In this document: in pieces, positions 319 to 33,854 of the stretch
Layout of the letters: every line of letters begins with the position of its first letter
Position numbering within the stretch: position 1 is the stretch's first letter
Source: a virus
Taxonomy: Duplodnaviria > Heunggongvirae > Uroviricota > Caudoviricetes
DNA: 33,854 nucleotides
Strand: one strand, 5' to 3'
IMG/VR virus record: IMGVR_UViG_2654588006_000001
Made by a program: the position numbers and the translations under genes
The notes under the pieces: generated by a model
Seen by the model: the letters and a program-made list of their open reading frames with translations, nothing else
The model's database searches: none
What the model was told of the DNA's origin: nothing

Positions 319-380
319 GAATATTTTTTGGTAAGCGTCAAACATGCGCGTTCTGGTTGTGCTTAGCCGGAACCTGTGCG

Positions 381-413
381 AGCACGATGCCGTTACGTGA
401 AAGGCATCGTGCT
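381..413. repeat. Perfect 11-bp inverted repeat (agcacgatgcc / ggcatcgtgct) with ~11-nt loop
   Basis: Read directly from sequence; sits between the lipoprotein gene and attL, no clear U-tract. Confidence 0.5.
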
Positions 414-477
414 ATGAAGGGAGATTCTATCGATGTGGTCAATGGAAGACGGTTACCAGAGATAGGGCTTATGCATA

Positions 478-504
478 AAAAAATAAGCCCGTGTAAGGGA
501 GATT
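478..504. repeat. attL core: 27-bp direct repeat aaaaaataagcccgtgtaagggagatt
   Basis: Identical 27-mer at 32322..32348; flanking bases differ on both sides; int lies immediately inside. Matches the 27-bp P2 att core as I recall it. Confidence 0.9.
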
Positions 505-4166: not shown

Positions 4167-6408
4167 AGCCTCCGGGCGTTTTGTCCCTCCATCAGCATTT
4201 GCCGCAGGCACCGGTAAGGCGTTTACCGGTGCTTATGCATGGAACGCGCCACGCGAGGCTGTCGGGCGCGAAAGACCCCTTACACGTGACGAGATGCGTC
4301 AGGTGCAAGGTGTTTTATCCACGATTAACCGCCTGCCTTACTTTTTGCGCTCGCTGTTTACTTCACGCTATGACTACATCCGGCGCAATAAAAGCCCGGT
4401 GCACGGGTTTTATTTCCTCACATCCACTTTTCAGCGTCGTTTATGGCCGCGCATTGAGCGCGTGAATCAGCGCCATGAAATGAACACCGACGCGTCGTTG
4501 CTGTTTCTGGCAGAGCGTGACCATTATGCGCGTCTGCCGGGGATGAATGACAAGGAACTGAAAAAGTTTGCCGCCCGTATCTCATCGCAGCTTTTCATGA
4601 TGTATGAGGAACTCTGCGATGCATGGGTTGATGCACATGGCGAGAAAGAATCGCTGTTTACGGATGAGGCTCAGGCGCATCTGTATGGTCATGTTGCTGG
4701 CGCTGCACGAGCTTTCAATATTTCCCCTCTCTACTGGAAAAAATACCGTAAAGGACAGATGACCACGAGGCAGGCATATTCTGCCATTGCCCGTCTGTTT
4801 AACGATGAGTGGTGGACTCATCAGCTTAAAGGTCAGCGTATGCGCTGGCATGAGGCGTTACTGATTGCTGTCGGGGAGGTGAATAAAGACCGTTCTCCTT
4901 ATGCCAGTAAACATGCCATTCGTGATGTGCGTGCGCGCCGCCAGGCAAATCTGGAATTTCTTAAATCGTGTGACCTTGAAAACAGGGAAACCGGCGAGCG
5001 CATCGACCTTATCAGTAAGGTGATGGGAAGTATTTCTAATCCTGAAATTCGCCGGATGGAGCTGATGAACACCATTGCCGGTATTGAGCGTTACGCCGCC
5101 GCAGAGGGTGATGTGGGGATGTTTATCACGCTGACCGCGCCGTCAAAGTATCACCCGACACGTCAGGTCGGAAAAGGCGAAAGTAAAACCGTCCAGCTAA
5201 ATCACGGCTGGAACGATGAGGCATTTAATCCAAAGGATGCGCAGCGTTATCTCTGCCGCATCTGGAGCCTGATGCGCACGGCATTCAAGGATAATGATTT
5301 ACAGGTCTACGGTTTGCGTGTCGTCGAGCCACACCACGACGGAACGCCGCACTGGCATATGATGCTTTTTTGTAATCCACGTCAGCGTAACCAGATTATC
5401 GAAACCATGCGTCGCTACGCGCTCAAAGAGGATGGCGACGAAAGAGGAGCCGAGCGAAACCGTTTTCAGGCGAAACACCTTAACCGGGGCGGTGCTGCGG
5501 GGTATATCGCGAAATACATTTCAAAAAATATCGACGGCTATGCACTGGATGGTCAGCTCGATAACGATACCGGCAGACCTCTGAAAGATACTGCCGCGGC
5601 TGTTACTGCATGGGCGTCAACGTGGCGCATCCCGCAATTTAAAACGGTTGGTCTGCCGACAATGGGGGCTTACCGTGAACTACGCAAATTGCCTCGCGGC
5701 GTCAGCATTGCTGATGAGTTTGACGAACGCGTCGAGGCTGCACGCGCTGCCGCAGACAGTGGCGATTTTGCGTTGTATATCAGTGCGCAGGGTGGGGCAA
5801 ATGTTCCGCGCGATTGCCAGACTGTCAGAGTCGCCCGTAGCCCGTCGGATGAAGTTAACGAGTACGAGGAAGAAGTCGAGAGAGTGGTCGGCATTTACGC
5901 GCCGCATCTCGGCGCGCGTCATATTCATATCACCAGAACGACGGACTGGCGCATTGTTCCGAAAGTTCCGGTCGTGGAGCCTTTAACTTTAAAAAGCGGC
6001 ATCGCCGCGCCTCGGAGTCCTGTCAATAACTGTGGAAAGCTTACCGGTGGTGATTCTCCGGTTATGACCCCCACACCGTCTGAGCAAGCCACAGCTGTGT
6101 TAAATCTGATTGATAAAGGAGTGATTGGTTGGGATGAGCCGGATGTTATAAAGGTGCTTAACGGCGCGTTAAACGCTGGTGCGCCTCAAAAAAGCAGCCA
6201 ACAAAGAAATGCAGCATCGCTCAAACCTGCTGAACAGACGCCATCAGCCAGGCTTACCAAAGCGGAGAGGGAGCGGATACCAAAAATTCGATTTGATTTG
6301 GTTCAGAAAGATATTGTTCCTGAGTGGTGGGAGCTTGAGGTTCTTGCTCGGGGAGCGAAAGTGCATTTTGGATATAAAGTATTCAAATATCACAATAATG
6401 ATAAATAG
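4156..6408 (+). CDS. A: Rolling-circle replication initiator gpA (HUH endonuclease)
   Basis: HUH motif (…EPHHDGTPHWHMMLF…) and paired tyrosines (GYIAKYISK) in translation; synteny. Start uncertain: the track ORF begins at 4114, 4156 (MAVKASGRF) minimises overlap with the upstream gene. Confidence 0.9.
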   Translation: MAVKASGRFVPPSAFAAGTGKAFTGAYAWNAPREAVGRERPLTRDEMRQVQGVLSTINRLPYFLRSLFTSRYDYIRRNKSPVHGFYFLTSTFQRRLWPRIERVNQRHEMNTDASLLFLAERDHYARLPGMNDKELKKFAARISSQLFMMYEELCDAWVDAHGEKESLFTDEAQAHLYGHVAGAARAFNISPLYWKKYRKGQMTTRQAYSAIARLFNDEWWTHQLKGQRMRWHEALLIAVGEVNKDRSPYASKHAIRDVRARRQANLEFLKSCDLENRETGERIDLISKVMGSISNPEIRRMELMNTIAGIERYAAAEGDVGMFITLTAPSKYHPTRQVGKGESKTVQLNHGWNDEAFNPKDAQRYLCRIWSLMRTAFKDNDLQVYGLRVVEPHHDGTPHWHMMLFCNPRQRNQIIETMRRYALKEDGDERGAERNRFQAKHLNRGGAAGYIAKYISKNIDGYALDGQLDNDTGRPLKDTAAAVTAWASTWRIPQFKTVGLPTMGAYRELRKLPRGVSIADEFDERVEAARAAADSGDFALYISAQGGANVPRDCQTVRVARSPSDEVNEYEEEVERVVGIYAPHLGARHIHITRTTDWRIVPKVPVVEPLTLKSGIAAPRSPVNNCGKLTGGDSPVMTPTPSEQATAVLNLIDKGVIGWDEPDVIKVLNGALNAGAPQKSSQQRNAASLKPAEQTPSARLTKAERERIPKIRFDLVQKDIVPEWWELEVLARGAKVHFGYKVFKYHNNDK

Positions 6409-32000: not shown

Positions 32001-32219
32001 ATGTTTCATTGTCCTTTATGCCAGCATGCCGCACATGCGCGTACAAGTCGCTATATCACTGACACGACAAAAGAGCGTTATCACCAGTGTCAGAACGTGA
32101 ATTGCAGCGCCACGTTCATCACTTATGAGTCGGTACAGCGATACATCGTGAAGCCGGGAGAAGTCCACGCCGTAAGGCCGCACCCGTTGCCGTCAGGGCA
32201 GCAAATTATGTGGATGTAA
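32001..32219 (+). CDS. ogr: Late-gene transcription activator Ogr (C4 zinc finger), 72 aa
   Basis: MFHCPLCQHAAHARTSRYI…CQNVNC… with four Cys; last gene before the att repeat; start taken at internal ATG. Confidence 0.9.
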   Translation: MFHCPLCQHAAHARTSRYITDTTKERYHQCQNVNCSATFITYESVQRYIVKPGEVHAVRPHPLPSGQQIMWM

Positions 32220-32230
32220 TTAGAAACAGG

Positions 32231-32257
32231 AAGCCCCTCAGTCGAGGGGCTTTTTTT
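32231..32257 (+). terminator. Rho-independent terminator after ogr
   Basis: Stem aagcccctc / gaggggctt, loop agtc, followed by seven T. Confidence 0.85.
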
Positions 32258-32321
32258 GTCGATGTGGTCAATGTGTGGACGTGACCAGAAATAAATCCTT
32301 TTATTTCAATTTGTTGTACGT

Positions 32322-32348
32322 AAAAAATAAGCCCGTGTAAGGGAGATT
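32322..32348. repeat. attR core: 27-bp direct repeat
   Basis: Identical to 478..504; overlaps the 3' end of cyaR. Confidence 0.9.
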
Positions 32349-32408
32349 ACACAGGCTAAGGAGGTGGTTCCTGGTACAGCTAGCATTTTATGGGTTATGT
32401 TTTTCAGC
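32322..32408 (-). ncRNA. cyaR: sRNA CyaR (RyeE), 3' end formed by the att core
   Basis: Reverse complement reads gctgaaaaacataacccataaaatgctagctgtaccaggaaccacctccttagcctgtgtaatctcccttacacgggcttatttttt, matching CyaR as I recall it; between yegQ and the prophage ogr end as in K-12. Confidence 0.85.
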
Positions 32409-32492
32409 GAAACGGATGATAACCTTAATAAATGCAGCTGTATGTGATCGGTTTCTAAGAATTTTCCATCCGGGAAAAATAATCGAAATTAA

Positions 32493-33854
32493 TCACTTAC
32501 CGTGGGGATTACGCGTGGTTTCCCCGGAGAAATTACGCATCAGCAGCGCGTAATTGAGCTCAAGATCCTGCGGGACCGGGAGCCACACAGTATAACCATC
32601 GCCTGGTGCTATCGGCATAGCTTCGCCTTTGGCGTTTTCCATGTGCTCAAGGGTAAAATTAATGTTGCCTTGCGGCGTCATCAGCTCAAGGCTGTCGCCA
32701 ACGGAGAATTTATTTTTCACCGCTACCGCCGCGAGGTCCCCCTTGCGCTCACCGGTAAACTCACCAACAAACTGCTGGCGGTCAGAAACTGAATAACCGT
32801 ATTCGTAGTTCTGATAATCGTCGTGAGTATGACGACGCAGGAAACCTTCGGTATAGCCACGATGCGCCAGACCTTCCAGAGTTTCCAGCAGGCTGGTATC
32901 GAACGGTTTTCCCGCAGCGGCGTCATCGATAGCTTTGCGGTAAACCTGTGCGGTGCGTGCACAATAGTAGAAAGATTTGGTACGACCTTCGATTTTCAGC
33001 GAATGCACGCCCATTTTGGTCAGGCGTTCTACATGGGCGATGGCGCGCAGATCTTTCGAGTTCATGATGTAAGTGCCGTGCTCATCTTCAAACGCGGTCA
33101 TATACTCGCCCGGACGCTGGGCCTCTTCGATCATAAACACTTTGTCGGTTGGTGCGCCGATACCCAGCGTCGGCTCAACATTTTGCACCGGAATCGGCTC
33201 GTACTTGTGTACGATGTTGCCAACATCATCTTCTTTCCCTTCCTGGACGTTGTACTCCCAGCGGCAGGCGTTGGTGCAGGTGCCCTGGTTCGGGTCGCGC
33301 TTGTTGATATAGCCAGAGAGCAGGCAGCGACCGGAGTAGGCCATGCACAGCGCGCCGTGAACGAAGATCTCGATCTCCATATCCGGCACCTGATTGCGGA
33401 TCTCTTCAATCTCTTCCAGCGACAGCTCGCGAGAGAGGATCACGCGGGTCAGGCCCATTTGCTGCCAGAATTTCACCGTCGCCCAGTTCACGGCGTTAGC
33501 CTGCACCGAAAGGTGGATCGGCATTTCAGGGAAGTGCTCACGCACCAGCATAATCAGCCCTGGATCGGACATAATCAGCGCATCCGGCCCCATTTCCACC
33601 ACCGGTTTCAGGTCACGGATAAAGGTTTTCAGCTTGGCGTTGTGCGGTGCAATGTTGACCACGACATAAAACTTTTTCCCCAGCGCGTGGGCTTCATTGA
33701 TGCCGAGCTGAAGATTTTCGTGGTTGAATTCGTTGTTGCGCACACGCAGGGAATAACGCGGCTGGCCCGCATAAACAGCATCTGCGCCATAAGCGAAAGC
33801 GTAACGCATATTTTTCAGCGTTCCCGCCGGGGAAAGGAGTTCCGGTTTAAACAT
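32493..33854 (-). CDS. yegQ: Peptidase U32 family protein YegQ/TrhP, 453 aa (host flank)
   Basis: N-terminus MFKPELLSPAG…, 453 aa, adjacent to cyaR as in E. coli K-12; start codon is at the window end. Confidence 0.8.
   Translation of the reverse strand: MFKPELLSPAGTLKNMRYAFAYGADAVYAGQPRYSLRVRNNEFNHENLQLGINEAHALGKKFYVVVNIAPHNAKLKTFIRDLKPVVEMGPDALIMSDPGLIMLVREHFPEMPIHLSVQANAVNWATVKFWQQMGLTRVILSRELSLEEIEEIRNQVPDMEIEIFVHGALCMAYSGRCLLSGYINKRDPNQGTCTNACRWEYNVQEGKEDDVGNIVHKYEPIPVQNVEPTLGIGAPTDKVFMIEEAQRPGEYMTAFEDEHGTYIMNSKDLRAIAHVERLTKMGVHSLKIEGRTKSFYYCARTAQVYRKAIDDAAAGKPFDTSLLETLEGLAHRGYTEGFLRRHTHDDYQNYEYGYSVSDRQQFVGEFTGERKGDLAAVAVKNKFSVGDSLELMTPQGNINFTLEHMENAKGEAMPIAPGDGYTVWLPVPQDLELNYALLMRNFSGETTRNPHGK

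Follow-up and report, generated by a model that had tools for sequence, protein, structure and literature searches.

Organization of the locus

The stretch of DNA analysed in this study (33,854 nt, hereafter the window) carries a P2-like prophage set between two host flanks. The left flank opens with yegR (1-318, + strand), an orphan gene for a lipoprotein-like product of 105 amino acids (Pfam YegR, PF27694), which is followed by 159 bp of non-coding DNA (319-477) that is at once the B arm native to locI, the attachment site of P2, and the right end of what is called here the yegR islet. The 27-nt att core of P2, AAAAAATAAGCCCGTGTAAGGGAGATT, is found twice on the + strand, as the attL copy at 478-504 and as the attR copy at 32322-32348. 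The second copy doubles as the 3' end of the cyaR (ryeE) small RNA gene (32325-32410, - strand; Rfam RF00112, 100.7 bits, E = 3e-19), attB being supplied by the terminator half of cyaR, and an Rfam scan of the window matched CyaR alone. The host gene yegQ/trhP (32493-33854, - strand) occupies the right flank.

On the prophage side of the attL core lie the P' arm of the resident prophage (505-583, with Int arm repeats at ~594-620, all within 505-1597 of the - strand) and its int gene (584-1597, - strand). At the opposite end, the annotation transferred from P2 places ogr at 32001-32219 and the ogr rho-independent terminator at about 32230-32257, both on the + strand, and these are followed by the genuine P arm of the resident prophage (32259-32321, + strand), with its Int arm-binding site at 32259-32286 and its IHF site from ~32290. 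The constructed attP was 98.2% identical to that of phage P2 (AF063097), and the integration site of the window prophage is the classical P2 site locI. An open reading frame at 306-521 (71 aa) that runs across the flank was taken as spurious, with natural indels of 1 nt and 12 nt lying inside it, and because of these same indels among the alleles the whole of 319-477 was treated as non-coding.

Similarity of the left flank to the phage P arm

An earlier reading of this DNA from its sequence only had reported a 15-mer shared by the left flank and the phage arm, together with partial similarity past it, and both of these observations were borne out. The 15-mer TCGATGTGGTCAATG has exactly two copies in the window, at 430-444 and at 32259-32273, both on the + strand; the chance expectation for a 15-mer with up to two mismatches is 0.08 matches. 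The similarity extends over ~36 nt, with one small gap on each side, so that TCGATGTGGTCAATG-GAAGACGGTTACCAGAGATA of the flank is aligned with TCGATGTGGTCAATGTGTGGAC-GTGACCAGAAATA of the phage arm. The local score of the flank against the P arm was 38, as compared with 14.8±2.3 for shuffled sequences, and none of 1000-2000 shuffles equalled it (z 10.3). The flank copy and the phage copy stand on the same side of the core and in the same orientation, at 33 nt and 48 nt, respectively, from their own core. The last position of the arm-like stretch (477) directly adjoins the first of the core (478).

With reference to the annotation of P2 (AF063097), the P arm consists of a 28-nt Int binding site, TCGATGTGGTCAATGTGTGGACGTGACC, then an IHF site and then the core. 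The shared 15-mer is the first 15 nt of this Int site and thus corresponds to the first Int arm-type repeat. The flank is similar to the P2 arm in the order of Int site, IHF region and core, and its first Int arm repeat is intact at 430-444, but its second repeat is degenerate, with GAAGAC where P2 has GTGGAC, and its IHF region is shortened by ~15 nt; the flank reads GTTACCAGAGATA where the P arm has GTGACCAGAAATA. Two Int repeats and an IHF site at P2 spacing, as expected of a functional attP arm, are not present together in the flank, and judged by such sequence criteria it would not be a functional attP arm, unlike the P arm of P2.

Comparison beyond P2 gave a concordant picture, as the flank could be aligned colinearly along its whole length with P arms of P2-like elements that are integrated at cyaR in other genera, and the P arm of Citrobacter youngae has a 17-nt exact match, TATCGATGTGGTCAATG, in common with the flank. 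These alignments support the view that 428-477 (+ strand) is a homologue, now decayed, of the ogr-proximal P arm of P2-like phages, and an earlier P2-type integration at the cyaR core is the most likely source of it; to this extent the interpretation given in the sequence-only reading was supported.

Alleles of the flank and the hairpin downstream of yegR

Sixteen alleles of the flank, obtained from IMG/VR contigs and genomes, were aligned. The first arm repeat was intact and the second degenerate in all sixteen, in a collection whose probe fixes 432-452. A minority of the alleles were longer, with 12 extra nt (GACCAGGGATCAATCCGT... as compared with GACCAGAAATAAATCCTT... in P2), and these carry the homology into the IHF region (GACCAGGGATCAATCC vs GACCAGAAATAAATCC), raising the score to 43 and z to 12.6. 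The arm measures 60 nt in the long allele as against 63 nt in P2, and the shortfall in the IHF region comes down to ~3 nt. One long-allele type was found in 145 of the 5426 genomes and another in 4, an empty site (strain Ecol_545) being among them. We read the long allele as a form of the relic that may be less deleted; being rare, it is no more than a candidate for the ancestral state.

A perfect 11-bp stem with an 11-nt loop is present at 381-413 (+ strand) both in the sequence and in the predicted fold; its arms are agcacgatgcc and ggcatcgtgct, and it lies 63 nt 3' of the yegR stop codon. This hairpin had been described as terminator-like and as sitting where the ogr terminator would be. 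It does exist, and its position was confirmed, but the description is valid for position only, because the stem is followed by ATGAAGGGAG, without a T tract, and a terminator scan of 1-700 called no terminator. Natural C-to-T changes in the 5' arm of the hairpin retain pairing, as G·U, only on the + strand. Probably the hairpin forms a stem-loop at the 3' end of yegR transcripts; it does not qualify as a canonical intrinsic terminator. A structured RNA covering 319-477 was considered and rejected: the fold gave z -5.7 against shuffles, but no compensatory changes, in the hairpin or elsewhere, were detected among the 16 aligned alleles. An imperfect inverted repeat at 325-340 and 448-463 (TTTTTTGGTAAGCGTC / GACGGTTACCAGAGAT) brackets both flank hairpins in the predicted RNA fold, with its 3' half situated within the P-arm relic.

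Distribution of the flank in E. coli genomes and phage records

An empty site was constructed by joining 1-504 of the window to 32349-32900, so as to contain yegR, 319-477, the core, cyaR and yegQ, and was searched for in 5426 complete E. coli genomes. It was covered to at least 80% in one place in 4565 of them, mostly as a single uninterrupted piece, and in ~16% of the genomes a large insert splits the site. Some genomes were 100% identical to the constructed site, for instance NZ_CP033401, whose annotation lists yegS, yegR and yegQ one after another and shows no phage gene among them. The flank was 92-95% identical, and the 15-mer intact, in a K-12 derivative, in a B2 strain derived from E2348/69 and in a strain that has 169 bp more after yegR. 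The presence of the flank at empty sites means that 319-477 is native attB-flanking DNA; the relic occurs in nearly all sampled E. coli, and the view that it tells something about this particular strain or its prophage was not supported.

These results refute, for this strain, the explanation that the sequence-only reading had offered, namely an older P2-like element that once lay next to, or in tandem with, the present prophage. Strains without a prophage here carry the same flank, and the comparison of empty sites found 319-477 beside cyaR with no prophage there, an arrangement which that reading had itself named as evidence against its proposal. The likeness it had drawn to the ogrK/yegZ remnant of K-12 failed as well, since K-12 has the flank plus a remnant of its own inserted between flank and cyaR: in K-12 the same flank runs into 18 nt of core joined to the end of gene D, and from there through ogrK and a P arm close to that of P2 to the core and cyaR. 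The ogrK/D' remnant of K-12 is a separate and later layer to the right of the flank.

Barreiro and Haggård-Ljungquist are said to have described, in J Bacteriol in 1992, this remnant of P2 (ogrK, yegZ/D'), which E. coli K-12 carries at locI. The K-12 remnant and the flank relic are comparable in that both are P2-derived, adjoin the cyaR core and would have been left by internal deletion of a prophage, and the K-12 remnant, like the flank relic, includes a P arm abutting the intact core. On the other hand, the K-12 remnant (~630 bp, near-identical to P2) still has ogr and a portion of D, begins with a truncated core and is limited to K-12-type strains, whereas the flank relic, which lies to the left of it, is found in nearly every sampled E. 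coli genome, is recognisable over ~50 nt at roughly 70% identity and harbors no phage gene.

A scan of IMG/VR with the exact E. coli-type arm returned 116 contigs, and all of them have yegR upstream, which means that host flank was included in these prophage calls; many IMG/VR contigs begin exactly at the yegR start codon, as the window does. A second scan with the long-allele motif gave E. coli flanks and unrelated chance matches only. When a phage collection was searched with 381-477 and the left part of the islet, two host-flank records and otherwise weak chance matches were obtained. Among GenBank entries, ON470606.1 is a prophage record spanning yegS and yegR beyond attL, and AY639599.1 matches the 3' half of yegR and the flank alone. 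No living phage that carries the E. coli-type arm emerged from the phage collection or from the IMG/VR scans. The host gene yegR is carried in two GenBank 'phage' records and in 116 IMG/VR contigs, and prophage-boundary callers that extend direct repeats, as well as phage databases that contain host flank, are misled at locI.

A length difference was also observed on the yegR side of the flank. An extra, AT-rich 169 bp stands directly after the yegR stop codon (window position ~322) at 1819-1990 of locus L003 (NZ_CP124424), and it was present in 5 of the 33 full-coverage rows of a spread genome sample and in 14 of the 116 IMG/VR contigs. It could be an insertion or, equally, the result of a deletion in the other strains.

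The yegR islet and its boundaries

For comparison with other lineages, the yegQ neighbourhoods of 80 Enterobacteriaceae species representatives were used. The distance from the yegS start codon to the cyaR core was 74-117 bp in about 45 of the 80 species. It was 85 bp in Escherichia sp. E1V33, in a set that holds a single Escherichia outgroup with an unoccupied site (n=1), as against 882 bp in E. coli, and the sequences of the two can be aligned as far as the core. Neither yegR, searched for within 3 kb of yegQ, nor the flank was found at any of the 80 outgroup loci. Between yegS and cyaR there is thus an islet of ~0.8 kb which is a derived insertion, E. coli-specific among the lineages compared, and yegR is its sole gene. 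With the flank as its right end, it makes the relic both larger and older than the sequence-only reading had it. The GC content of the islet is 39.7%, as compared with 49.7% for yegS and 54.1% for yegQ, which speaks for a foreign origin, and its left part is single-copy in 5401-5421 of the 5426 genomes. One segment of the islet, CCAGGAGCTTGCA, was tried as an ERIC-like dispersed repeat and rejected, being single-copy (blastn in distant mode; median 1 place per genome, maximum 2).

The islet is bounded by core repeats, with the intact copy (478-504) on the right and a decayed copy on the left. The decayed left core, AAAAAGTCAGTTCAAGTATGGAGGATT, stands exactly where the homology of E. coli and E1V33 breaks and is in register with the core of E1V33; it lies at 1183-1209 of locus L001 (NZ_CP033401), that is, ~290-317 bp upstream of window position 1. 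Aligned without gaps, it shares 18 of 27 positions with the att core (binomial P = 2.4e-5), a count that only one further 27-mer attains in the 67.7 kb formed by the two strands of the window. A third core-like segment was noticed in the flank itself: the 27-mer at 400-426 agrees with the core at 15 of 27 positions and ends in AAGGGAGATT (417-426, + strand), which equals the last 10 nt of the core and stops 3 nt before the arm relic, while the K-12 and B2 alleles read AAGGAGGATT at this place. This may be a decayed middle copy of the core, or chance.

No int or other phage coding remnant was detected in the islet (tblastn of Int; the phage-database matches were host-flank records). When the 40 nt to the right of the left core were compared in anchored fashion with the P2 P' arm, 5 of 2000 shuffles reached the score; with unrestricted local alignment this was the case for 45-64 of 1000 shuffles, and an unrelated yegS stretch scored higher. 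No similarity of the left-core side to the P' arm of a Klebsiella P2-like element was found. As the likeness to a P' arm is weak, only one arm of the islet is securely P2-like.

The YegR family is almost confined to E. coli, and its distant homologues occupy other, unrelated chromosomal loci, where DNA homology ends at the ends of the reading frame. Searches by tblastn and in PHROG yielded no phage homologues, the matches being restricted to records that include the host flank. The family phrog_21109 matches YegR over its full length (E = 1.3e-71), which suggests that it was built from host flank. The candidate status of yegR as a phage moron was accordingly not retained, the tblastn and PHROG matches being host flank and the support going no further than the position of the gene. 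Because YegR is without phage relatives, it is from position alone that we infer it to be cargo of the ancient element.

Origin of the flank

Our data make it probable that the flank, which is the ordinary host arm of locI, is also a fossil of an ancient P2-type integration in an ancestor of E. coli. In that ancestor, at a time when at least one sister Escherichia lineage had already split off and the sampled phylogroups had yet to diverge, an element with a P2-type integrase would have recombined with the 3' end of cyaR. Nearly the whole element would later have been deleted, with ~0.8 kb left between yegS and cyaR in the order decayed left core, AT-rich spacer, yegR with its 3' hairpin, decayed P arm (~428-477) and core. 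The core, which completes cyaR, would have been kept intact by selection on the small RNA. Modern P2-like phages, including the window prophage, integrate into this surviving core, so that P-arm-like DNA of older date borders their attL on its outer side. Insertion at the core, a bounding repeat of the core and a P-arm-like sequence that abuts the surviving core in the orientation of P2 prophages today make up the signature of an old integration by an integrase, with later loss of the interior. Precedents come from the same site, where K-12 shows a later instance of the process and three of the ten islets examined in other genera have core-like sequence at their left junction. Homology to the P arm, presence of the flank at the empty sites of most genomes, its absence from the outgroups and the decayed far core repeat are observed, and we infer that the insertion was mediated by an integrase. 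The arm relic is most likely functionless today, apart from the hairpin, which would serve the yegR transcript.

Other explanations have to be weighed against this history. We give almost no credence to a strain-specific scar, in which a recent ancestor carried an older P2-like prophage beside or in tandem with the present one that was almost wholly deleted, like ogrK/yegZ; the P-arm similarity itself would fit, and deletion remnants do arise at this locus, as in K-12, but the flank stands at the unoccupied sites of most genomes (4565/5426, with NZ_CP033401 100% identical), K-12 holds it in addition to its own remnant, and yegR is upstream in 116/116 of the IMG/VR flank matches. It is likewise highly improbable that the flank is unrelated host DNA which came by an Int arm-like motif through chance or convergence. 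The exact match is indeed short (15 nt), the rest is ~70% identical and no phage genes are left; nevertheless, 0 of 1000-2000 shuffles reach the score (z 10-12.6), the orientation, the side and the approximate core distance are as in the phage, and the stretch is colinear with the P arms of many genera and situated inside an insertion bounded by a core repeat. Just as improbable, in our estimate, is repeated copying of the P arm into the flank by gene conversion or recombination with resident P2 prophages, for which no ancient relic would be needed. The opportunity exists, given that ~16% of the genomes are split by a large insert and that in such lysogens the true P arm lies ~33 kb off in direct orientation; however, the arm-like stretch is uniformly diverged from P2, with no patch of near-identity in sixteen alleles (collected with a probe that fixes 432-452), the flank is the same in lysogens and non-lysogens, and no phage with the E. 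coli-type arm was found.

A history in two layers is unlikely, though some chance has to be left to it. The yegR islet would then have arrived first, on an integrative element using the same core, and a P2-like phage would have entered the right core and lost everything between the end of its left core and the beginning of the Int site, leaving a core relic at 400-426, the triplet CTA, the P-arm relic at 430-477 and the core. The decamer AAGGGAGATT (417-426), identical to the end of the core and so close to the arm relic, would fit such a deletion, and a 10-mer core match anywhere in the flank is expected by chance only ~0.005 times; in addition, the K-12/B2 alleles (AAGGAGGATTC) have GGAGGATTC in common with the end of the decayed left core, and nested remnants do accumulate here, as K-12 demonstrates. 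Against this, 400-426 agrees with the core at only 15/27 positions, the first 17 being at chance level, and overlaps the 3' arm of the yegR hairpin, and the argument is post hoc, with the alleles varying at exactly these bases. Retention for a function, where the surviving Int arm-type repeat helps P2 Int to use locI or alters excision at attL, appears very unlikely. The first arm repeat is intact in sixteen alleles, though the collecting probe fixed 432-452, and locI is the preferred site of P2, a status that would suit such a role. Yet no evidence was seen that the repeat is conserved beyond the flank around it. A paired arm site of the kind present in P and P' requires the second repeat as well, and this has degenerated here; the IHF site is largely lost, and canonical attB sites need no arm sites. 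There is a slim chance that the arm repeat might bind P2 Int, and so add to the preference of P2 for locI or change excision or tandem lysogeny. If it were active, attL would be partly attP-like, and an old phage scar would condition later integrations at the same place.

An ancient P2-type integration thus remains the reading that we adopt, and it bears on how such flanks are interpreted. Prophage remnants at att sites are already well known, including that of K-12 at locI. In the full-text literature that was searched, no description of an arm-like sequence in the locI flank was found, and within the same scope the locI arm has not been described as an older P2-type relic present with yegR in nearly all E. 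coli. Where a prophage arm resembles the host flank, a recent second prophage need not be the cause, and the classical 'native' attB arm of the preferred site of P2 would itself be phage-derived. The E. coli orphan gene yegR would be located in an islet that was delivered to the 3' end of cyaR and then stranded. The yegS-cyaR junction can be regarded as a layered record of integration, with the decayed core, yegR and the arm relic in E. coli, to which K-12 adds D'-ogrK, and with toxin-antitoxin or cdt islets in other genera.

Other occupants of the yegS-cyaR junction

Islets of 0.24-2.7 kb were observed between yegS and cyaR in other genera, among them Kluyvera, Enterobacter and Leclercia. Those that were checked harbor a HicA/HicB pair, an addiction-module antidote-like HTH protein or a 2-thiouracil desulfurase family protein, and a partial or decayed core-like sequence was recognized at the yegS-side junction in 3 of the 10 islets examined. 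The yegS-cyaR site is a general integration hot spot. The E. coli islet resembles the decayed islets known from the 3' ends of tRNA and sRNA genes, which likewise hold lineage-specific cargo between the end of the RNA gene and its decayed repeat, and differs from other hot-spot islets in being present in nearly all sampled genomes and in that its outer end has been treated as the native P2 attB arm.

In E. albertii NBRC 107761 (locus L007, 4534-7100), a P-arm relic was observed beside the cyaR core, truncated inside the Int site (CAGTGGACGCGATCAGAAATAAACCCTATTATTTCA...), and ~1 kb further there are cdtA-like (Pfam CDtoxinA, E = 2.5e-43) and cdtB-like (Exo_endo_phos) genes. A locus for cytolethal distending toxin is thus located, at this attachment site too, behind a scar of P2 type. 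With respect to the core itself, the end of cyaR in E. coli equals the P2 core at 27/27 positions, and two stem positions (GCCTGCGT vs GCCCGTGT) separate it from the cores of Citrobacter and of the nearest Escherichia relatives, E1V33 and E. albertii. The cores of Kluyvera are also 27/27, including that of one species without an islet.
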